A stretch of 43,811 bases of DNA, from assembly GCA_033764955.1 (NCBI GenBank), contig JANRIL010000033.1, positions 1 to 43,811 on the forward strand, in the 5' to 3' direction. The translations under genes and the position numbers were made by a program. Positions 13,687 through 43,580 of this stretch are shown here, piece by piece (within the stretch, counting starts at the first letter, position 1; the number at the start of each line of letters is the position of its first letter). A model generated the notes under the pieces. The model was not told the origin of the DNA and ran no database searches. It saw only the letters and a list, made by a program, of their open reading frames with translations. The stretch is from Cyanobacteriota bacterium (GTDB taxonomy: Bacteria > Cyanobacteriota > Cyanobacteriia > Thermostichales > Thermostichaceae).

Positions 13687-15159
13687 GTGGAACCCATCGT
13701 GATGATTGTGGCTAGCCTGGTGGCTTTGTTGGTGGGCGGGCTGGAGGGCTGGAGAAACCGTCAGGATTGGCAAAGTTTATCCCCTTTGGCTTGGCGCGGG
13801 ATCGGGGTGGGTCTCACCGTTTGTGCTGGGTTGGCGGTGGCATTGCGGCAATTCCTCCAGCCGGACAGCTTAACCTGGGCTTTGCTGCTGTTGGGAGGAT
13901 TATTGGGCGTTGGTCTGAGCCTACTGAGTGGGTTGGGGCGCGCCGCTCAAGCGCTTGTGCTTTTGGGAGTCAGTTTGGGGACGGGGCTGTTGCCTGCGGA
14001 TCCTGAGGTTGTGTTGCCCCACCTGGCTGCCTTGGGATTGGGATCCGGATTGGTTGGGATCCCAACTCTCTTAGTGATGCCAGCCAGTGCCGGACAGGGG
14101 CTATTGCTGGGGATGGGGCAACTGTGGGTATGGATCGCCGCCGTCGTCTGGGGATCCCGTTTGGCTAGTTTGAGTAATCCCCAGGATGGGGGTTGGATGG
14201 TTCTGCTTCCTCTGGGGTTGGTTTGTCTGAGTATCTTGGGGGGAACGATTCCCCTTTTGGTAGGTAACCTTAGCCCTGCTACCCAAACTTGGCAGACTTG
14301 GATCGGTCGAGCTGTGGGCTGGCTCGTCACAGAGTTGCTGGCTATCGCCCTCATCCACAATTGGCTACGCCAAGACTCTTTTTATGGGCTGATCTTTGGG
14401 GCGGGGTTATTGGGATCCCTGGCTTTGTTAGCGTTGGAACATCGACCCGTCAGCTCAACCCCACCGCTACCGGGGAGCTGGCTGTGGCGCGGTACCGTTA
14501 GCCTTCTCTTCGTGGGGGGCGGATCGTTACTGGCGCTGCGGCTGGGGGGATCCTATGGGGCTGCTCTCCTGGGGATAGGCTTGTTGGCGTGGCCGGGATA
14601 TTGGGCTACGTTGGCAGCGCTCTTTTTGGCCGCCCGACCGTTGGTGCAAAGCTTGCTCTATCAGTTTGATCTCAACTTGAGCGGCATCAACATCACCCAT
14701 TCCTATACCTATGCGGCACTCTATCTGGGGATTGCCGTGATGCTCTTGGCAGCAGTAACTCGCTATACTTACAGCCGTTCTGCTCCGTTGCTAACGGCAG
14801 TCGGATTGACGCTAGCTAGCGTTGCCCTGCCGGGGCTGGTGGGATTTTTTATCCACCTGGAGCCACAGGCTGCCTTTCTATTGGCTGCCATGATGGTAGG
14901 GCTGGTCATCGCCGCCCTAGAGCCGATCTGGGCAGAATTGCCAGGGATCCCGAACTGGCTGGGAGCACAGGGCTTGTTATGGACGATCCTAGCCTGCTTG
15001 ACGGCACTCCTGACCACCCCCCTCACCACCTTGGGCGATACCGCCACTCGGGTGGAACGGCTGATCGGGTTGGCAATTGTAACGGGCATTCTCGCTGTCG
15101 GGACACTGGTTTTGCATCGCTGGCAAGCCATAACTCGTTCCCAACACCCAACCGGATAG
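13687..15159 (+). CDS. Polytopic membrane protein of unknown function (possible degenerate membrane-PPase fold)
   Basis: 490-aa ORF that is almost entirely hydrophobic segments with short loops. GTG start. The function is not established; see findings. Confidence 0.75.
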   Translation: MEPIVMIVASLVALLVGGLEGWRNRQDWQSLSPLAWRGIGVGLTVCAGLAVALRQFLQPDSLTWALLLLGGLLGVGLSLLSGLGRAAQALVLLGVSLGTGLLPADPEVVLPHLAALGLGSGLVGIPTLLVMPASAGQGLLLGMGQLWVWIAAVVWGSRLASLSNPQDGGWMVLLPLGLVCLSILGGTIPLLVGNLSPATQTWQTWIGRAVGWLVTELLAIALIHNWLRQDSFYGLIFGAGLLGSLALLALEHRPVSSTPPLPGSWLWRGTVSLLFVGGGSLLALRLGGSYGAALLGIGLLAWPGYWATLAALFLAARPLVQSLLYQFDLNLSGINITHSYTYAALYLGIAVMLLAAVTRYTYSRSAPLLTAVGLTLASVALPGLVGFFIHLEPQAAFLLAAMMVGLVIAALEPIWAELPGIPNWLGAQGLLWTILACLTALLTTPLTTLGDTATRVERLIGLAIVTGILAVGTLVLHRWQAITRSQHPTG

Positions 15160-15347: not shown

Positions 15348-15722
15348 CTAAAAATTAGCTCGGTATTGATACAGATCTACGGAAATGCCAGATGGCTCAA
15401 CCCAAACCGGGATCCCTTTGATCGCTAGCCCCTTTTGATCCACCTGGAGGGGCAGTTGTTGCAGAGTGTTAGCCCATTCATTCAGGCGGGGATGTCCCCA
15501 ATCGGCTTCTGTGGCCTTTATTGAGTCTGGAGAGAGATGCACAGCCAAAGCCGTGACCGGGGAAGGGGGCCTATGAGCTTGCGACCAAGCTTGATAGGAA
15601 CTGCTGGCGCTGGGGGTGATGGGTTGGAGATCCTGACCCCGCGCAACCTCTGCCCAGCCAGAAACACCTACGAGCCAGATACTCGTCCACTGGATCCACC
15701 CCAGTTTATGGGTTCGCTTCAT
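15348..15722 (-). CDS. Hypothetical exported protein
   Basis: From ATG 15722 (GAGG upstream): MKRTHKLGWIQWTSIWLVGVSGWAEVARG-QD, a signal-peptide-like N-terminus. Fills the gap between flanking genes. Start is uncertain. Confidence 0.55.
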   Translation of the reverse strand: MKRTHKLGWIQWTSIWLVGVSGWAEVARGQDLQPITPSASSSYQAWSQAHRPPSPVTALAVHLSPDSIKATEADWGHPRLNEWANTLQQLPLQVDQKGLAIKGIPVWVEPSGISVDLYQYRANF

Positions 15723-15954
15723 AATTTGCATCCTCAGGGGAAACAGCCAGACGCCGCCGGATAGGCTCAAGACTGAGGGCGCTCCGTTGGCGTTCCGTCC
15801 GATGAACCCACAATTTCTTCGGTGACTAAACCGATTAAACACGCCCGGATCCCCCCCTTCCCCATGACGTTTGAACTAATTTTATTGACGACAATCCGCA
15901 ATCTTGTTTGCAATCGGGAGGAATGGTCGGGTTGATGGTATCGTGAGGGCTTGA

Positions 15955-20751: not shown

Positions 20752-21171
20752 GTGCCTCCTCCCCGTAAGTCTGCCCACAAAATTGAGCTGACCGGAATCT
20801 ACCCTTGTCCTTGTTGCCACCAAGGTCAACTACGTCCGATTACCCTGACCGAGGCATTGGGATGTAGCCGTTGCCAGCATATTTTTGCTTTGATGCCCGA
20901 TCACCTGCATATTGAGCAGTTGGCGGTTTCCTATCCCTATCGCAAACTTTGGTATTGGAATGGATCCCATTGGAGCCTGTGCCGGGAAGAAAGCGCCCCC
21001 CAATCTATGTTGCTTGGTCTAGCCCTGGGGCTGATTGTCTTGATTGCCCTGAGTTTTATCGTCGCCACCCAACTGGAGGGGCAAGGGGAGTTAGTCATTT
21101 GGCTGGCAATTGCCATGATTTTTTTGCTGGGGTTGTTAACCGTGTTGATCTTGATTTTGCGGCGTTCTTAG
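20752..21171 (+). CDS. Cys-rich (zinc-ribbon-like) membrane protein of unknown function
   Basis: YPCPCC...LTEALGCSRC, W-x-W-N-G-x-x-W, then two C-terminal transmembrane helices. GTG start. Confidence 0.75.
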   Translation: MPPPRKSAHKIELTGIYPCPCCHQGQLRPITLTEALGCSRCQHIFALMPDHLHIEQLAVSYPYRKLWYWNGSHWSLCREESAPQSMLLGLALGLIVLIALSFIVATQLEGQGELVIWLAIAMIFLLGLLTVLILILRRS

Positions 21172-34929: not shown

Positions 34930-35170
34930 AAACGAACCCATTACTCATCCGGTTCACTCCAGAAAGCGGCTTTACCTCCCCACAGCAGCCAGGAATAGAG
35001 AAAAGCGTTCTGGGAGCACCGGCGGGAAAAATTTCTAGATATAGCGCTAGGGTTTGCATGGATTTCCCGCCAATCAAGGAAATTTGGGCTTGTCATCCCC
35101 CAGATCTAGCATTAATCCCCTGAGTGTCTGTTACACTTATGGGCAATTTGAGTGGGATCCCCCCTTAACC

Positions 35171-36445
35171 ATGCCTTCGTTTCTGCATGTGGCGGATGTT
35201 CATCTTGGTTTTGATCGCTACGAGAGTCCTGAACGGACGAAGGATTTTTTCTATGCTTTTCGAGATGTGCTGCAACGCTATGCCGTGGAAGCCGCCGTTG
35301 ATTTTGTTTTGATTGCCGGAGATTTGTTTGAGCATCGCACCATTTTACCCAACACATTGAATCAGGCTGAATTAGCTCTAGGTTTACTCAAACAAGCCGG
35401 GATCCCGGTGCTAGCGATTGAAGGAAATCATGATAACTGTCCCTATGGGGTTAAAACCAGTTGGTTGCGTTATCTAGCCGATCATGATTTCTTAAGGCTA
35501 CTGGAACCCATCTATGAGCCAGAAACTCAACTGTTAGCGTGGTCAGATTCCAACAAAAGAGGAGGATATTGCGATCTCCCTTGTGGAGTGCGTGTGATCG
35601 GCTCTAACTGGTATGGATCTTCTGCTCCCAAGGCTATTGATGATCTAGCCAAAGCTATCCACAATCTGCCTAAAAACCCAACGATTAACCAGACGATTTT
35701 GATGTTTCATCATGGGTTGGAAGGGCAAATTGCCCGCTATCAAGGTGCTTTACGTTATGCAGATCTGATGCCCTTACGAGAGGCGGGGATTGATTATTTG
35801 GCTCTTGGGCATATTCACAAAAGTTATACCGTTGAGGGGTGGATTTTTAATCCAGGATCGTTGGAGGCTAACAGCATTGCTGAAAGTGAATTTGAGCGGG
35901 GCGCTTATTACGTCCACCTTAGCCCAGGATTTGTTCAAGCTAAATTGATACAAGACCATCAACAGCGACCCTGTTACCGTCTGGATTGGGAGGCAAAAGG
36001 GCGAGAAACCCTAGAGGAAATTCAAGAGACGATCCTAACGATTGTCCAGCAAGCTGTGATACCCAACTCTCCGCAAGCAATTGTAGAATTTAAGTTAAAA
36101 GGACAAGTAGGGATCCCAAAAAGCAGCTTCGATGAGCGTCGGATTAAGCAAGACATTCAACAGATTACTCACGCTCTCATTGTCATTTTTCGCTGGGAAG
36201 CCAAAGCTCTAGATTTTGACTTGTCTCCTGCTACTGTGGATGATAATCAAAGAATGGCTGTAGAAACACAAGTTTACCACGACCTTTTGGCCAGTCATGC
36301 CCACTACCGCAAGCGTAGTCAAGAGCTAGCAAATGTACTTCTTGATCTCAAAGAACAGGTAATCGATGGACAGCCAGAAAGGGTGAGTTATGAACGCCTT
36401 GGGCAGGCCTTTCTGGGTAACTCCTTTGGTATGGAGGAAGCATAG
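35171..36445 (+). CDS. sbcD: Mre11/SbcD-family nuclease (metallophosphoesterase)
   Basis: All phosphoesterase motifs are present: ADVHLG, AGDLF, EGNHD, MFHHG, LGHIH and NPGS. ATG at 35171. Confidence 0.93.
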   Translation: MPSFLHVADVHLGFDRYESPERTKDFFYAFRDVLQRYAVEAAVDFVLIAGDLFEHRTILPNTLNQAELALGLLKQAGIPVLAIEGNHDNCPYGVKTSWLRYLADHDFLRLLEPIYEPETQLLAWSDSNKRGGYCDLPCGVRVIGSNWYGSSAPKAIDDLAKAIHNLPKNPTINQTILMFHHGLEGQIARYQGALRYADLMPLREAGIDYLALGHIHKSYTVEGWIFNPGSLEANSIAESEFERGAYYVHLSPGFVQAKLIQDHQQRPCYRLDWEAKGRETLEEIQETILTIVQQAVIPNSPQAIVEFKLKGQVGIPKSSFDERRIKQDIQQITHALIVIFRWEAKALDFDLSPATVDDNQRMAVETQVYHDLLASHAHYRKRSQELANVLLDLKEQVIDGQPERVSYERLGQAFLGNSFGMEEA

Positions 36446-36450
36446 ATAAG

Positions 36451-39400
36451 ATGCGTATCCTATCCATTGCACTTAGAAACTTCAAAAATCATCAAGATAA
36501 TTATTTTGCTTTCGAGGATGGAATTAATGCGATTTGTGGTGAAAATGGTTCTGGAAAAACAAGTATTTTAGAGGGTATTGCTTGGGTTTTATTTGATTAC
36601 ACTCCCTATGTTGAGAAAGAAATGATTCGATTGGGGGCTAATAGTGCAGAGGTAGCTGTCAATATCATTTCCAATCGAGACTATCGCACCTATGAAGTCC
36701 GCCGCAGCACTACCAAGGGGTATACTCTCTACGACCCACAGTTGAATCAACGTTTAGAATATGAGCGTAAAGCAGATGTTTTACACTGGATTCGTGAGCA
36801 GTTAGGAGTTCCATCTGGCACTGATTTAGCTCGACTCTTCACCACAACCATTGGGGTTCCACAGGGCTTATTTACGGCTGATTTCCTCAAGACACCTCAA
36901 GAACGCAAAAAAACATTTGATTGCATTCTCAAGGTAGAAGAGTATCAAACTATTTATAAAGACTTACTACCTTTAGAAAACTATAGCAAGGAGCAGATAT
37001 CAGAGATTAGCCATCAACTTAATCGTCGAGAAGAACGTTTGCTGGAGTGGGAAACCCTGCATTCTCAACAGCAAAATCTCACAGAACTCCTCACGGAAAA
37101 GCAGGCTGAGCTTAGCCAAACTCAAAGTTCCCTCAGCCAATATCAACGGGAAGTAGTTCGGCTAGGGGGTATCTCCCAAACCCTTAGCGATTGGGATCAG
37201 CAGCTTCAGCAACTGTATCATCAGGGATCCCTTTATCAGGTGCAACTACAACAAGCAGAGAAGCTCTGGCAGGAGGCAGAACAAGCTCAATCGGAGGTGA
37301 GGCAGCATACCGACGGATATCAAGCCTACTTAGCGGCTGAACAGCACTTAGCTAATCTAGAGGATCGTTATCAACAAAGGCAGTCTATCCTTGCTGAGCG
37401 ACAGCGCCTTTGGGAGCTGCATCAAGCTGAAAATGATCAGCACATTCGCCTGCAAGAGCGTTTAGTTCAGTTTGAGAAAATCCGTACACAAATTGAGCAG
37501 CTACAGCCCCTTGCTGCCCAGCAAAATCAGTGGCTAGAGCAACAACAATATTTAATAGAGCAAATCCAAAAACGGCAAGCCATCATAGATCAAGTTACAA
37601 TCCTGCGTACTCATTGGGAAAGTCAGAATGAATGGATAGGGCAAAAAAGACAAGCTCTAGAAGCAGCGCATCAAGCCTATCAGCAATGCCAGCAGCATCA
37701 ACCAGGATATGAAGCTTACATTCATGCGGAAATCGAGTTATCTAAACTGGATCAGAGCCTACAAAAGCAGCGCCATTTACTAAAGCAGAGGGAACAAGCT
37801 CAAGCAAGCTACCACAAACTTCAGGTGGAACAAACCAAGCTCGATCAGCATCGTCAACGGGCGATCGAGCTCGAACACAATATTCATGCTCATCAACCTC
37901 AATTGGCTCAACAAAAAAGCCTAGAAACAAAGCAGGTGGAGCTGAAGGTTAAGATACAAGAATTTCAAAGTCTCCGCCTACAACTGGGTCAACGAGAAGC
38001 TGAGCAAGCGGAACGACAAAAGTATAGACAAACCTTTGTTGAACAACTTGCTCAACGCCAAACCCTACAACAACAGGTGGCACGGATCCCTGAATTAGAG
38101 CAGCAACAGGAACGACTCACCTCACAATTAAGTCGCCTAGCTGCTGCCCAGCAATTTCATCAGGAATTACTGAATCTAACGAAAACTGGTCATGCTAGAT
38201 TCACAGCCCATCAACAACGGATAGAGCAGGTTCTACAAAGATTCGCTAATCTAGACCAGGAGTTTCCAGAAGTAGCTCACCGCTTGGCAGCGATCCCTAA
38301 CTTGTTTCAAGAGGGATGTCAAATTAGCCAATATTTATTGGATGGCATCCAAGTGATTCTCCAGGATATCTCCAATCAAGTTTCACCCAAGGATTTGGAA
38401 GCACAGCAACAAAATCTTAAGGCAGAATTGCAACAAATCTATCCATTGCAGGGATTAGTCAATGAAATTCCTGAGTTACAAGTGCAAATTCAAGCCTATG
38501 AAAAAAGCATAGCCGAACTACAAGAAAATATTGACGATTTGTTATGGCAAACGGAAGCGGAAGCCCTATTTTTACGTCAATTGGCGGAATTAGAAACTCA
38601 GATGGAAATTATAGGGGATCCCGCAGCTCAAATCAAGCTTTGGCAGATGGAACGCGATGCAATTCCCTCATGGCAAGAGGAGTGGTTGACCATCGTGGCT
38701 GAGTTGGAGAAACAATCTCAGACCCTTCAACAACTGGAGACGACCTTAAGCCGGGTGCAAGATTTAGATGCTCAGGTTGCCGTCCAGCAACACATCAAAA
38801 TGAATCACAAAAATGACTATGAGCTTTATTTGCAGGCTCATAACTTAGCCAGCACCTTCTCTCATCATCAAGCAGATTTAGAACTATCCCTTGCTAAACT
38901 GCAAGAAATTGAGCAAACAGGAAAAAAATACCAGGATCAAATCAATCAACACCAGAACCAGACGGGATCCCTGGCGGCAATGACTGAGCAGTTAACCCTA
39001 ATTCAAGAACAGCTCCAGCAACTTCGGGATCCCCACAGTCAAATCCTCCGATATCAAGAAATCCTCTTGGAGGAACCCAAAATCCTTGAGCAGTTTCAGC
39101 GATCTCAACAACAGTTAACTGCTACTCAAAGTCACCTTGAACATCTAAATCGGCAGTTAACCGAAACCATAGCCATTGATGCTGAAATGACCCAATGGCG
39201 GGAAGCCAAGCAACAATATCGTTTGTCATACGAAACCTATAAAGCCCATGAGGCTCTGGTTCACCTATTACCCGAACGAGAAAAAAACTATCGAAACTTA
39301 CAAGCCGATATCCAAGCTAATCAAGCTCAACAAACGCAACTTCGTCTGAAACGGGATCCCTTGGCAGCGAGTTATAGTGCAGACTATCATCAAACCGCTC

Positions 39401-40023
39401 AGGCTAATCTCCGACAAGCCGAAATTAAGCAGGCTAGCTTAGCAAGTGAAATTCAATCTTTGGAACCCCAGCTAGCCGCTATAGAAGCTAAGCTGACTGA
39501 GCTGGAGACGATACGCCTTGAAAAACAAGAATATGAAGTTAACTTAGCAGAGCGGGAACGACTCCACCGATTTATTAAGTTTAGTCGCAGTGTATTCAAA
39601 GACGCTGGCCCACGCATCACTAAGCTTTATCTGCAAAATATCAATATTGTTGCTGATCAACTATTTCGAGAAATCCTGAATCGCTCGAATGTTTCTCTCA
39701 CATGGGAAACTGATTATGATATCACTATTCAAGAGGGAGGTAGCCCGAAACGACGATTTGCCTGCTTGTCAGGGGGTGAACAAATGTCGGCAGCACTAGC
39801 AGTGCGCCTTGCTCTACTTAAGGTTTTGGGTGATTTGGATGTTGCCTTTTTTGATGAACCCACTACCAATATGGATCGACAACGCCGCCAACAATTGGCA
39901 GAAGCCATTAATCAAATCCGCTCCTTTCGGCAGATTTTTGTGATTAGTCATGATGATACTTTTGAGCATATCACCGAAAATATTATCAGGGTGGAAAGGA
40001 AGGAGTTTAATTATGGCTATTAG
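36451..40023 (+). CDS. sbcC: Rad50/SbcC-family SMC-like ATPase
   Basis: Walker A GENGSGKTS, Q-loop VPQG, ~850-aa Gln/Glu-rich coiled coil, signature LSGGEQ, Walker B FFDEPT and ISHD. Starts 5 nt after the sbcD stop. Confidence 0.93.
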   Translation: MRILSIALRNFKNHQDNYFAFEDGINAICGENGSGKTSILEGIAWVLFDYTPYVEKEMIRLGANSAEVAVNIISNRDYRTYEVRRSTTKGYTLYDPQLNQRLEYERKADVLHWIREQLGVPSGTDLARLFTTTIGVPQGLFTADFLKTPQERKKTFDCILKVEEYQTIYKDLLPLENYSKEQISEISHQLNRREERLLEWETLHSQQQNLTELLTEKQAELSQTQSSLSQYQREVVRLGGISQTLSDWDQQLQQLYHQGSLYQVQLQQAEKLWQEAEQAQSEVRQHTDGYQAYLAAEQHLANLEDRYQQRQSILAERQRLWELHQAENDQHIRLQERLVQFEKIRTQIEQLQPLAAQQNQWLEQQQYLIEQIQKRQAIIDQVTILRTHWESQNEWIGQKRQALEAAHQAYQQCQQHQPGYEAYIHAEIELSKLDQSLQKQRHLLKQREQAQASYHKLQVEQTKLDQHRQRAIELEHNIHAHQPQLAQQKSLETKQVELKVKIQEFQSLRLQLGQREAEQAERQKYRQTFVEQLAQRQTLQQQVARIPELEQQQERLTSQLSRLAAAQQFHQELLNLTKTGHARFTAHQQRIEQVLQRFANLDQEFPEVAHRLAAIPNLFQEGCQISQYLLDGIQVILQDISNQVSPKDLEAQQQNLKAELQQIYPLQGLVNEIPELQVQIQAYEKSIAELQENIDDLLWQTEAEALFLRQLAELETQMEIIGDPAAQIKLWQMERDAIPSWQEEWLTIVAELEKQSQTLQQLETTLSRVQDLDAQVAVQQHIKMNHKNDYELYLQAHNLASTFSHHQADLELSLAKLQEIEQTGKKYQDQINQHQNQTGSLAAMTEQLTLIQEQLQQLRDPHSQILRYQEILLEEPKILEQFQRSQQQLTATQSHLEHLNRQLTETIAIDAEMTQWREAKQQYRLSYETYKAHEALVHLLPEREKNYRNLQADIQANQAQQTQLRLKRDPLAASYSADYHQTAQANLRQAEIKQASLASEIQSLEPQLAAIEAKLTELETIRLEKQEYEVNLAERERLHRFIKFSRSVFKDAGPRITKLYLQNINIVADQLFREILNRSNVSLTWETDYDITIQEGGSPKRRFACLSGGEQMSAALAVRLALLKVLGDLDVAFFDEPTTNMDRQRRQQLAEAINQIRSFRQIFVISHDDTFEHITENIIRVERKEFNYGY

Positions 40024-41215
40024 ATCGGCTTCTATCCTGTCCGTTCTGGAGCAAAAGCGAGAACAGTTTGATAGTTTTGATCTGCACAGTAGTGAACGGC
40101 GACAGCAATACCTAAATGCCATGCGGCAGCTCAAAGACTGGCCTAGTCTAAAAATTTATGAACAACTCAGTACGGTTTCCTTTCCTGGATCCCTGCCAAC
40201 CGAAGAATGGGATCACTACGCAAGCTGGCAAATTCCGTTTGCCCATGACTTTCATAACCATGAGGAAAGCCTATTGTGGGTTAATCAAACCATTCAGAAT
40301 ATCTCCACATTTGCTGTAGATGGCTCCCAAATTTATCCCTCCAAGGATATTTCTCTACCGATAGCTCTCATTCAGATTGGCTGGTTTGAGAACCGCCACA
40401 CTCCGGAGGGTCTCTACGAAAAAGATATTCGTGTAGACGTTCTTAGTCCTTCGGATCTGGGAGCCAATAACAGTGGAGATCCAAAGGAACGTATCGTCAA
40501 TATGCGGCGATTTGAGATGGAGATTCAGCGAATTATTGAATATATGGAACATATGGGATCCCATCAACAGCACCGCTCATGCTTAGCATTCTTGGATGGT
40601 TCACTGATTGCCTCCTTTGCCGAAGCCTTTGAACCTAGCCAGCAGGATCGTTATATTCAATCCCTCTTAAATTTATTACGCGCCAGTGAAACCTATCGAG
40701 TTCCACTGGTTGCTTATATTGATACCACTTACACGCGAGATTTGATCACCTTTTTGCAATATGTGTTTGATCTCCCAGAAGCTCCCCAACTGCATGATGC
40801 TCAACTGTTAGAGACTTACTTAGAGTGGGGAGATCGCTCTCCCTGCTGGGTTTGTGCCCGTGGAGGACTACAGTCTGGACAGACTGGCATCTTACATCAT
40901 TATCAAGAAATGCGAGAACGGGTGGGATTTGTTTATCTTAAAACAAACGATAACTATCCCGTTCGTTTAGAGATTCCTATATGGATTCAAGAAATGGGTT
41001 GGCTGGACTGGTTGGTTGATATTGTCCGTTGTGAGGTGATTATTGGCCGTGGTTATCCTTATGCTATTGAGACAGCTGATCAAACGGCGGTGCTGCGAAA
41101 CGAGGATCGCCATATATTCTTGAAGGTGCTACAAGATTGGTCGCAGCGAGAAAACCTCCATCTCAAGCTTTCTCGTAAAACTGTTAGTAAGATGCAGAGG
41201 AGGAGAGTCCGATGA
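40013..41215 (+). CDS. nurA: NurA-family DNA double-strand break repair nuclease
   Basis: Motifs FAVDGSQ, FLDGSL, VRLEIP and GYPYAIETAD. RBS AGGAG at 40001; ATG 40013 overlaps the end of sbcC by 11 nt. Confidence 0.9.
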   Translation: MAIRSASILSVLEQKREQFDSFDLHSSERRQQYLNAMRQLKDWPSLKIYEQLSTVSFPGSLPTEEWDHYASWQIPFAHDFHNHEESLLWVNQTIQNISTFAVDGSQIYPSKDISLPIALIQIGWFENRHTPEGLYEKDIRVDVLSPSDLGANNSGDPKERIVNMRRFEMEIQRIIEYMEHMGSHQQHRSCLAFLDGSLIASFAEAFEPSQQDRYIQSLLNLLRASETYRVPLVAYIDTTYTRDLITFLQYVFDLPEAPQLHDAQLLETYLEWGDRSPCWVCARGGLQSGQTGILHHYQEMRERVGFVYLKTNDNYPVRLEIPIWIQEMGWLDWLVDIVRCEVIIGRGYPYAIETADQTAVLRNEDRHIFLKVLQDWSQRENLHLKLSRKTVSKMQRRRVR

Positions 41216-41901
41216 GGTTAGGGAAGGTTGTTAAGTCTAATAATCACTGTGATTATGTGGTAGAAGTTGATGACCGCTTAAGTGTTAAGAGTCCTCCGGC
41301 TGCCGATGATTATGGTTTCGGGTGTTTTGTGAGGCTAGATACCCACAACCGGCACTGGGGGGTAGGGGTTATTTACAATACCCAACTGTTTAATCCAGCC
41401 TTTCTCAATTCTGGCCCCCGTTTATCCAGCCAGCCCAATCCAATCTATTCTCCCGACCTGCAAAATGAGATTAAGACGCTTCTTGCTGTTGTGCTGATTG
41501 GTAGCTTACAAGAAAAGATTCTACCTGCTAGACCCGACAGTCAAACCAAACCCACACTCAAATCAGAATCTTCTTCAAAACCACGACCAGACTCTAGCCC
41601 TAGTCCATCAGCTACTACCTATTATGGCTATCAAGGGATCCCAAAAGCCGTTGTTCCTATTGATACTTTGGTTTATCGTATGACCAGTCAAGAAATCCAT
41701 CAATTTCATCAGAATATTGAGGGAAAAAGTCAATTTACTTATTATGGGCTATTGCTTAATTGTGGAGGTATTTTCTCAAGTCACCTAATTCAGCAAGTGC
41801 TCAATGAAATTAGTGAAATGTTTGAAGGTAGTCAACGACGAGCCATAGAAACGTTGAGCAAAGAACTTTCTTGGAAAATGACGATGGGGGCAATGCGGTG
41901 A
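41212..41901 (+). CDS. Stand-alone HAS-barrel-like protein
   Basis: MRLGKVVKS..., FGCFVRL, GVIYN and YQGIP...P...VY..T..EI..F, a pattern like the N-terminal barrel of HerA. No ATPase motifs. ATGA overlap with nurA and TGATG overlap with herA. Confidence 0.75.
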   Translation: MRLGKVVKSNNHCDYVVEVDDRLSVKSPPAADDYGFGCFVRLDTHNRHWGVGVIYNTQLFNPAFLNSGPRLSSQPNPIYSPDLQNEIKTLLAVVLIGSLQEKILPARPDSQTKPTLKSESSSKPRPDSSPSPSATTYYGYQGIPKAVVPIDTLVYRMTSQEIHQFHQNIEGKSQFTYYGLLLNCGGIFSSHLIQQVLNEISEMFEGSQRRAIETLSKELSWKMTMGAMR

Positions 41902-43580
41902 TGAATACAGTGAATCAAAATCATTCAACTTACACGGGTGAGCAACGGGATCAAGTGATTGGAACGGTGAAAGGACCTGGAGAAGAGGCTAATCAATATA
42001 TTTTCATTACCTCTAATACTCAGGCAGTAAAAGTAGGAGAGTTTGTCTATTATGAAAGTATTGGCAAAGCTCAAAAAATTCTGGGTAAAATTTCCCAACT
42101 TCAGCTCTTGGATCATTTACCCGATCGAATTTTTGCCGACACTGACATTGATCCGAGTGCCATCGTAGCCCTGATTGGTTTCAGCTATCCCAATCCAGAA
42201 ATTTATGCTGTTACGGTAGAGGTGATTGGCTACTTCCATAGAGCGATGGGCTTTGTCAATCCGCGCCAAGCACCTGATCCGGGATCCAAAGTCTTTCTTG
42301 CCTCCCATGAAATGCTGCGAACTGTCCTCAATAAACGACAGATGCAGGATATTGGTGGTGCCCATTTGGGCAGCCTTCTCCTAAGAGAAGAAGGAGATGT
42401 GCCTGTGGTGCTCGATGTTAAAGAATTAGTCAGCACCCACCTGGCTATTTTGGCAGGTACTGGATCCGGTAAATCCTATACAGCAGGGGTTTTAATCGAA
42501 GAATTGCTTTTACCTAAAAACCGTGCCGCTATCCTCATTTTTGATCCCCACGGAGAATATGGGACTCTCAGTGAGATGCAGTCTCACCCCACTTTTTGGA
42601 CAGAAGATGGCTATCGCCCCAAGGTGAAAGTTCTCACACCTGATCAAATCAAAATACGAGTTTCTTCTCTTAATTTCTATGATATTTTGACATTATTGCC
42701 GGATATGTCTGATCGTCAGCAGTCCTTTCTTGAAAAAGCATTTCTAGCCACTACTCAACACAATCAACAACGCTGGACGATTCAAGATTTGATTGATGCG
42801 GTTAACGATGCCGACTCCTCACAAGATGGTACGCAGGGATCCTCCGCCGCGGCTCTCCAGTGGAAGCTAGATAGAATTGATCGTTCTCCCTATTTTAGTA
42901 ATATCGAACATTTAGCTCCACGGGAATTATTTGAACCTGGGCAAGTGACGATCCTGCAAATGAATGAAATTAGCCAGGATGAACAGCAAGTCATTGCCGC
43001 TGCCATTTTGCGACAAGCCAATCATGCTCGCATGAATACCCATAAAGGCAAAATTTCTGAGCAGGAAGAAACCTATTTGCCCTTCCCAGTCTTTATTTTG
43101 ATTGAAGAAGCTCATCGTTTTGCTCCGGCTCACGAACCTTCCCGCTGCAAACAGGTGCTCCGCACAATTTTGAGTGAGGGTCGTAAGTTTGGTTTGGGTG
43201 TGGGGTTGATTACCCAACGCCCAGGGAAATTAGATTCTGATATATTATCGCAGTGCATGAGCCAGTTTTTGATGCGAATTGTTAACCCGATTGATCAAGA
43301 AAATCTGCGCCACAGCGTCGAAGCCGCCGGACGAGATCTGTTGAGCGAGTTACCTTCATTGAGCAAAGGCCAAGTGATTGTCTCGGGGGTCTGTGTGAAT
43401 ACTCCGGTTTTGTGCAAAGTGCGCCAACGTCATACCAAACATGGTGGACAAACCCTAGAAATCCTAGAGATTTGGCAGCAACATTTTCAATTGCACCAAC
43501 AACGAGAACGTTTGGTCAAATCTGCCCCCCTCCGCTCCCGTTCTCAACCTCACGTTTTGGATGGGTTAAGTATCGACTAG
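41901..43580 (+). CDS. herA: HerA-family helicase/translocase (DUF87)
   Basis: N-terminal HAS barrel (IGTVKG, VGEFVYY, PDPGSKV), Walker A HLAILAGTGSGKS, FDPHGEY, Walker B ILIEEAH, Arg finger EGRKFG and TQRP. Confidence 0.93.
   Translation: MNTVNQNHSTYTGEQRDQVIGTVKGPGEEANQYIFITSNTQAVKVGEFVYYESIGKAQKILGKISQLQLLDHLPDRIFADTDIDPSAIVALIGFSYPNPEIYAVTVEVIGYFHRAMGFVNPRQAPDPGSKVFLASHEMLRTVLNKRQMQDIGGAHLGSLLLREEGDVPVVLDVKELVSTHLAILAGTGSGKSYTAGVLIEELLLPKNRAAILIFDPHGEYGTLSEMQSHPTFWTEDGYRPKVKVLTPDQIKIRVSSLNFYDILTLLPDMSDRQQSFLEKAFLATTQHNQQRWTIQDLIDAVNDADSSQDGTQGSSAAALQWKLDRIDRSPYFSNIEHLAPRELFEPGQVTILQMNEISQDEQQVIAAAILRQANHARMNTHKGKISEQEETYLPFPVFILIEEAHRFAPAHEPSRCKQVLRTILSEGRKFGLGVGLITQRPGKLDSDILSQCMSQFLMRIVNPIDQENLRHSVEAAGRDLLSELPSLSKGQVIVSGVCVNTPVLCKVRQRHTKHGGQTLEILEIWQQHFQLHQQRERLVKSAPLRSRSQPHVLDGLSID

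Follow-up and report, generated by a model that had tools for sequence, protein, structure and literature searches.

A gene carried by a contig of a Thermostichales cyanobacterium encodes a 490-aa membrane protein which, as structure modelling confirms, has the fold of membrane pyrophosphatases (mPPases, HppA) and from which the cytoplasmic hydrolytic centre of these ion pumps is missing. The gene is inherited and lost together with five partner genes, whose products look like envelope proteins. By the window we mean the whole stretch of DNA that was analysed, 43,811 nucleotides long. Features of the gene are given below; residue numbers refer to the 490-aa protein.

13687..15159, forward strand: gene for the 490-aa protein of about 17 helices with predicted mPPase fold and without the cytoplasmic hydrolytic centre (ORF, model, structure searches).
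14203..14241, forward strand: aa 173-185, equivalent of TM7 by global profile alignment (model helix 170-192).
14392..14415, forward strand: aa 236-243, equivalent of TM9 by profile alignment.
14503..14586, forward strand: aa 273-300, comprising the end of TM10, the invariant R285 and a TM11 cut short by deletion of its cytoplasmic half, the part that carries D11.50/D11.57 in mPPases.
14635..14649, forward strand: aa 317-321, with R317 and Q321 on either side of L319 in the TM12 outer half, L319 being the putative equivalent of the hydrophobic-gate residue L12.64.
14680..14730, forward strand: aa 332-348, start of TM13 with the signature G-x-[ND]-x-x-[HQ]-x-Y, overlapping the dimer positions 13.21-13.23 (numbered as in PMC6882861).
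14818..14913, forward strand: aa 378-409, TM14, outer loop with H390/E392, and TM15.
15049..15144, forward strand: aa 455-486, extra C-terminal TM17 past the 16-TM core, with R458 or K at its start.

The ORF is a single intact frame with a GTG start, whose position is the same in close homologues. It is flanked by the aconitase B gene and a convergent 164-aa ORF, and one copy was found in the source genome. Elsewhere in the window, three ORFs belong to no Pfam family (15348-15842 on the reverse strand, 20752-21171 and 41212-41901 on the forward strand); among them, a 139-aa ORF is conserved in all five related genomes tested. Positions 35054-43580 hold genes for a metallophosphoesterase, an SMC/Rad50-like protein, NurA, a 229-aa ORF and HerA, that is, a DNA-end-resection cluster of the mre11-rad50-nurA-herA type.

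The original prediction described the protein as a non-catalytic derivative of the mPPase fold and cautioned that hydrophobic helices can look alike by chance. The AlphaFold2 model, made from an 86-sequence alignment (pLDDT 91.9, pTM 0.92), is all helical with about 17 membrane segments. When it was searched with Foldseek, every match listed at E<=0.001 was an mPPase (lowest E 1.2e-5, query-normalised TM score reaching 0.72, identity 11-13%). VIA-align, which is independent of Foldseek, ranked the pyrophosphatases of V. radiata (Z 27.2, rmsd 3.1 Å, 451 residues aligned) and P. aerophilum (Z 26.8) far above the next of 48,161 chains, an unrelated fold at Z 7.0. Re-alignment to the T. maritima enzyme (6qxa) gave Z 37.0 and rmsd 2.8 Å over 445 residues and spans model residues 3-459 on chain residues 2-726. 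Because this alignment ends at residue 459, we regard residues 455-486 as an additional helix. A second model was built from its own 24-sequence alignment for the distant high-GC non-photosynthetic clade (pLDDT 89.3); it also found mPPases, at Z 25.1 and 24.1 versus 7.0 for the next chain. The two-ring fold of 15-17 TM is present in both models, and with Z of 24-37 for mPPases against 7 for unrelated chains the likeness goes beyond chance resemblance of helices. With the known structures (PF03030; TmPPase 6qxa/5lzq, VrPPase 5gpj, PaPPase 8b37) the protein has in common the 16-helix two-ring fold, an rmsd of about 3 Å over 433-452 residues, the helix order, the N-out topology and an I-[ND]-L motif at dimer positions 13.21-13.23. 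The ESM Atlas yielded no usable match, its own model of the protein being poor (pTM 0.27), and viral structures gave none at E<=0.001. The label "MFS transporter", attached in UniRef to homologue P0020, receives no support from the fold searches.

At the level of sequence the relationship is remote. Pfam and NCBIfam searches found no family for the protein, PF03030 included, and searches of PDB sequences with the single sequence or a profile gave no relevant match; the phmmer matches in PDB were spurious repeats of a designed propeller. Profile-profile comparison does recover the link that these standard searches miss. With hhalign, the family aligned to 39 canonical HppA at a probability of 88% (E 2.8e-6, 203 columns), and the reversed-alignment control gave 0.1%. 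Earlier comparisons with shallower profiles had reached only 11% and 0.9% before deeper alignments raised the value. The similarity is collinear and strongest across TM8-15. Five segments had been quoted in the original prediction as parallels, in order, to HppA transmembrane segments. They lie in that order at aa 173-185, 236-243, 273-300, 332-348 and 378-409, and the global profile alignment places them at the expected counterparts, TM7, TM9, TM10/11, TM13 and TM14/15. Descent from the long, divergent type of HppA found no support: the match to it was just 0.4% against 88% for canonical HppA, the divergent profile being a shallow one of 8 sequences.

The protein differs from HppA in several respects. 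It is some 200-250 aa shorter and lacks the hydrolytic centre, the funnel and the ion gate; furthermore, its conserved residues are predicted to be periplasmic, it has the extra TM17, and it is tied to a module of alpha-2-macroglobulin (A2M) and peptidoglycan proteins. The acidic HppA motifs formerly reported missing are indeed absent from the translation. Five strict catalytic patterns occur in none of 126 family members and in 31-47 of 47 HppA; a sixth, loose pattern of the EY[YF]T type occurs in one of the 126. The protein contains 16 Asp and Glu residues, while the mean of the 47 HppA sequences is 52. According to the profile alignment, the cytoplasmic hydrolytic centre (Asp/Lys of TM5, 6, 11, 12, 15 and 16) is not present and the corresponding segments are deleted. 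For individual residues, numbered together with the funnel and gate positions as in PMC6882861, we relied on the register of the profile alignment rather than on structural superposition. In this register R5.50, D6.50 and E6.53/6.57 fall at about V130, L140 and M143, K12.50, D16.46 and K16.50 at about Y305, L430 and I434, and D11.50/D11.57 in a deleted stretch. No coupling-funnel or ion-gate residue of mPPases is conserved among the 126 members, and the ion-gate residues of the 490-aa protein itself appear to be lost too. Since the catalytic patterns are gone from the whole family, gate and funnel residues are not retained and D11.50/D11.57 are deleted, hydrolysis of PPi and pumping by this protein are very unlikely. 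The description as a non-catalytic derivative is thus supported by two models, profile homology and the loss of catalytic motifs, inactivity being what we infer from them.

Conservation in the alignment of these 126 sequences (from phmmer and from genomes) points to a different part of the molecule. Most conserved are R285 and Y340 (100% each), G333 (98%), Q321 (96%) and H390 (94%), followed by W155 (91%), H338 (90%), R317 (87%) and E392 (81%), and position 335 is Asn or Asp. The signature G-x-[ND]-x-x-[HQ]-x-Y is found in 124 of the 126 sequences (first position G or S). Substitutions occur nevertheless: Gln replaces E392 in half and H338 in 45% of Thermostichales sequences, 17% of one clade have Gly in place of H390, and D142 is common solely in the Vampirovibrionia-like clade. 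No polar residue in mid-membrane or on the cytoplasmic side is conserved across all three clades. Predicted cytoplasmic loops carry 17.3 Lys and Arg per sequence and outer loops 5.7; these positive-inside counts support the mPPase topology with the C-terminus in the cytoplasm after TM17. R285, R317, Q321, H338, Y340, H390 and E392 are then predicted to lie on the periplasmic side, opposite the ancestral active site, and conserved residues occupy the outer ends of inner-ring helices 11, 12 and 15. As 15 of the 16 loop positions conserved at >=70% are on the predicted outer side, the functional face would have shifted from the cytoplasm to the periplasm. The conserved cluster fits binding better than catalysis, because it contains no invariant acid and many Thermostichus sequences have Gln for H338 or E392. 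Contacts in the mPPase homodimer are made by TM10, 13 and 15 (PMC6882861). By profile alignment I334-N335-I336 correspond to dimer positions 13.21-13.23, and the cytoplasmic part of TM10 is lost.

The named members of the family point to one phylum. Among 1.84 billion representatives phmmer found 94 matches at E<=0.001, of 125-593 aa and hence without long fusions. Named members come from Thermostichales, Melainabacteria, Obscuribacterales and Vampirovibrionales, all Cyanobacteriota labels except for one "compost metagenome" entry; the genome-wide searches were made within Cyanobacteriota. At least 20 of 301 genomes of the phylum carry the family (five candidates scored per genome), and a deeper look at 57 genomes added 7 carriers and none among 13 genomes of family f32, 6 of f33, 8 of f31, 3 of f37 and 19 others of the same class. 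The family occurs in 18 of 30 genomes of the source genome's order and in 55 of 61 genomes of the order of genome G301. In a second sample of the class (141 genomes), the 8 strong matches all belong to the source genome's family; three weak matches in other cyanobacterial families are short, hydrophobic and devoid of the signature motif, and look like unrelated membrane proteins. A plasmid search with homologue P0029 gave no match. A quick unrooted tree of 41 of the 126 sequences has three groups: Thermostichales (support 100), the high-GC non-photosynthetic families f30/34/35/36, which we take to be Sericytochromatia (100), and a Vampirovibrionia-like group (93). As far as an unrooted tree can be read, this is consistent with vertical inheritance from an ancestor that lived early in the history of Cyanobacteriota.

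True HppA has a distribution of its own: none of the 128 same-class (oxygenic) genomes searched yielded it, while 167 of 173 other genomes of the phylum did. A PF03030 search of the source genome, which is 89% complete, gave no match. All 18 non-photosynthetic genomes matched in the 301-genome survey also hold true HppA, and the 490-aa protein is therefore a paralogue of HppA, not its replacement. Most of the small f31 genomes have a PF03030 protein of 800-830 aa with altered motifs and about 590 bits instead of about 890, resembling the divergent mPPase type; presumably these are Na+-regulated "divergent" mPPases. They are likewise an outlying mPPase branch in non-photosynthetic Cyanobacteriota, and unlike the 490-aa protein they are longer and have kept their acidic motifs.

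The original prediction recommended a survey of homologues and their gene neighbourhoods, and it was this survey that revealed the module, the chief pointer to the protein's function. In non-photosynthetic Cyanobacteriota the gene sits in or beside a set of six, the others encoding a transpeptidase-only penicillin-binding protein (PBP), SpoIID, AMMECR1, a thioester A2M and VanW; in the source genome these partners are on other contigs. Any link to the immediate neighbours acnB, hupE/ureJ and rpsA was rejected, for they do not recur beside the gene in G272. At 23 of 24 loci of the high-GC families, the PBP gene comes next on the 3' side and on the same strand; the remaining locus breaks off close to the end of its contig. 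The PBP gene is followed, in one run or at two loci, by SpoIID, AMMECR1, an A2M of about 1600 aa and VanW. All ten Obscuribacterales-like genomes examined (three from the survey and seven picked for long contigs) have module genes inside a stretch of about 20 kb, and here VanW often abuts the 490-aa gene. When metagenomes were scanned with VanW as the only seed, 80 loci came up, many on short contigs, of which 47 had A2M, 34 the 490-aa family (one weak match), 20 AMMECR1, 17 the transpeptidase and 14 SpoIID. Two long metagenome loci, L231 and L233, contain the other five module genes and lack the 490-aa gene.

Some loci have further peculiarities. SpoIID and AMMECR1 domains share one frame at L073, L075, L076 and L137 (f30 genomes and G055), suggesting fusion. 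In three Obscuribacterales-like genomes a copper amine oxidase gene and a gene for a conserved protein of 727-748 aa without Pfam match (L105:8490-10679, L106:12079-14262, L107:11530-13776) lie between the 490-aa gene and the A2M cluster.

In the oxygenic Thermostichales the genes are unlinked, yet they are lost together. The source genome has all five partners, each on a separate contig: a 308-aa transpeptidase on C48, SpoIID on C7, AMMECR1 on C45, A2M with the thioester motif CTEQ on C43 and VanW on C35. Of the 18 genomes of the order with the 490-aa gene, 17 yielded A2M, 17 VanW and 16 AMMECR1, and the gaps fall in fragmented assemblies. Five genomes of the same family without the gene have no A2M, no VanW and no intact AMMECR1 (0/5 each). 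Their transpeptidase and SpoIID matches are at paralogue level only, whereas clear orthologues exist in 4 of 4 positive genomes. As a control, three unrelated genes of the window were kept in 14 of 15 tests in these five genomes. Seven f54 genomes lack the 490-aa gene, AMMECR1 and VanW and carry a longer, lower-scoring type of A2M, and two incomplete f32/f33 genomes contain partial A2Ms that were assigned to neither type. One genome, G492, which lacks the rest of the module, has at C2:194274-194489 an AMMECR1 remnant with an internal stop, a vestige pointing to recent decay of the module.

Several points count against the link to the module. The five losses in the family perhaps represent only two independent events, two of the five genomes are reduced, at 2.2 and 2.4 Mb, and the module is split into two loci in some genomes. 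Of 132 other genomes sampled from the class, 32 have VanW domains, and the 490-aa family was not found there. Finally, in G482 (C9:42880-44424) the match to the family is interrupted by one TAA, through breakage of the gene or an error of assembly, while A2M, AMMECR1 and VanW are present.

In a quick tree, module A2Ms and A2Ms of about 1900 aa fall on separate sides of a branch (SH-aLRT 93). The thioester G-CxEQ is present in 17 of 19 module A2Ms. In every aligned one the N-terminus is a hydrophobic helix with an invariant Pro after it, and in 17 of the 19 Cys is absent from the N-terminal 70 aa. VanW of the module likewise has an N-terminal hydrophobic helix before a Pro motif ([ED]-[KR]-P in A2M, R-P-[FY] in VanW), and these shared termini are possibly uncleaved anchors or a common recognition signal. 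A complex prediction for the 490-aa protein, the N-terminal 115 aa of A2M and VanW scored 0.02 against a mark of 0.32 and gave no answer. In two Thermostichales genomes A2M is directly 3' of pilB-pilT-pilC-like genes on the same strand (G000:C43, L078:7596-17624; G272, L079:7528-17216), a placement which suggests co-expression with type IV pili. SpoIID is a lytic transglycosylase. The module PBP, about 300 aa, retains the SxxK, SxN/S and KTG motifs and has no transglycosylase domain; by contrast, a full transglycosylase-transpeptidase PBP is encoded next to the single 1900-aa A2M of cyanobacteria that was inspected. VanW domains, according to PMC11348318, include L,D-transpeptidases with a Cys/His/Asp triad. 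In an alignment of module VanW sequences C118, H141, D153 and D162 are invariant (20 of 20), residue types that would match this triad.

Two types of bacterial A2M systems invite comparison. Type I A2Ms (E. coli yfhM-pbpC, Salmonella Sa-A2M) combine, as the module does, a CxEQ thioester A2M with wall-repair enzymes, and were proposed together with PBP1c to trap proteases while the wall is repaired (PMC5764988). Their layout, a lipobox A2M adjoining bifunctional pbpC, is not that of the module: most module A2Ms have no lipobox Cys and possess an N-terminal CarboxypepD_reg domain, the PBP is without transglycosylase, and four further genes, that of the 490-aa protein included, are present. The type II system of Pseudomonas, magABCDEF, has also six genes, an A2M without lipobox and a stabilising membrane protein, MagB, which MagD requires and which stabilises the complex (PMC3735191, PMC5764988). 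Type II A2Ms have no thioester, while those of the module mostly keep it; Mag partners do not carry the Transpeptidase, SpoIID, AMMECR1 and VanW domains of the module; and MagB has one predicted helix, the 490-aa protein about 17.

We propose the following scenario. The protein, a paralogue of mPPases, has kept all 16 core helices and gained a 17th. Missing are the cytoplasmic loops and helix extensions which form the hydrolytic centre and the coupling funnel of mPPases, and with them it would have lost the splitting of PPi and the pumping of ions. As gene clustering and joint loss show, it is the polytopic inner-membrane member of an envelope defence and repair module, alongside a thioester A2M, a VanW L,D-transpeptidase, a transpeptidase-only PBP, a wall lytic enzyme of SpoIID type and an exported AMMECR1. 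Presumably still dimeric, such a platform may bind a ligand in its periplasmic Arg/His/Gln/Tyr/Glu pocket, either the membrane-proximal segment of a partner or a negatively charged intermediate of wall or lipid synthesis. In this way the protease trap and the wall enzymes would be kept together at the inner membrane, as MagB does for MagD. We lean tentatively, and at less than even odds, towards this non-pumping platform with a periplasmic binding pocket, because the 490-aa protein is the sole polytopic membrane member of the module and MagB stabilises MagD. On the other hand, 17 helices are a costly anchor, and A2M and VanW appear to have N-terminal membrane helices of their own and may not need one. 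Of the roles named in the original prediction, scaffold (or receptor) fits best; channel or transporter fits less well, the old ion path being unconserved and the conserved residues periplasmic.

A solute transporter or channel, in which the six inner-ring helices import wall fragments or peptides and the periplasmic polar cluster forms the recognition mouth, is nevertheless the kind of protein one could expect from a transporter ancestor whose whole ring architecture has been retained. SpoIID, the transpeptidase and trapped proteases would yield muropeptides and peptides, and the conserved residues do lie at the outer end of helices 11, 12 and 15. We consider it unlikely, though worth serious attention: neither a polar residue conserved across the three clades in mid-membrane or on the cytoplasmic side nor an energy-coupling residue is left, and R317 and Q321 probably face away from L12.64 by helical register. 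An Arg/Arg/His/His/Gln/Tyr cluster at the level of the outer leaflet would suit a phosphorylated ligand. The protein might then bind, recycle or present undecaprenyl-pyrophosphate or lipid II, or supply the glycan-polymerase function that comes from PBP1c in type I A2M systems, and the module PBP without transglycosylase, as opposed to the complete PBP beside the 1900-aa A2M, agrees with this. Such a role is rather improbable, given that there is no invariant acid (E392, 335, H338 and H390 vary) and that the cluster, being opposite the ancestral PPi site, would inherit no chemistry from it.

Ancestry from an ion pump and linkage to a protease sensor and trap could also speak for a gated ion leak or signalling channel, opened when A2M is triggered so that the attacked cell is depolarised. 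We find this quite improbable: R5.50, D6.50, E6.53, D16.46 and K16.50 would map to mostly hydrophobic non-equivalents, a cytoplasmic output domain is missing, and the other partners are repair-type enzymes. The neighbours of the gene are unrelated in the source genome and in G272, and so its linkage to the module might be merely historical and its function a separate one. Clustering in two classes, and the joint loss of unlinked genes while controls were kept, leave little room for that. Finally, the shared fold might be taken for a divergent mPPase that is still active; with the catalytic patterns in 0 of 126 members, 16 acidic residues, deleted cytoplasmic loops, and true HppA already held by 18 of 18 matched non-photosynthetic genomes, this has hardly any probability.

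The boldest reading would be a functional reversal of the fold before the oxygenic lineage split off: the PPi site was dropped, a periplasmic active or transport site arose, and the protein became the core of a third type of A2M system, later lost in crown cyanobacteria. It is conceivable, although we would sooner doubt than accept it. If true, the protein would represent a membrane enzyme or transporter of a new class, such as one that handles lipid carriers, imports muropeptides or partners a glycan polymerase outside the SEDS family.

Searches of mainly open-access literature brought up no description of a family that has the mPPase fold without its catalysis, nor of the six-gene module. 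In the set of solved structures searched, the fold is otherwise limited to pyrophosphatases. A loop-less, single-copy derivative kept in three deep lineages shows that it is reusable, and offers a natural "membrane domain only" protein for comparison with the pump. The module is apparently an undescribed third arrangement of bacterial A2M with wall enzymes, probably ancestral in Cyanobacteriota, and it persists in cultured Thermostichus. These organisms provide a setting to test the long-standing idea that proteases are trapped by A2M as wall enzymes mend the damage. Taken together, the fold of an ancient pump appears to have found a second use in defence of the cell envelope.
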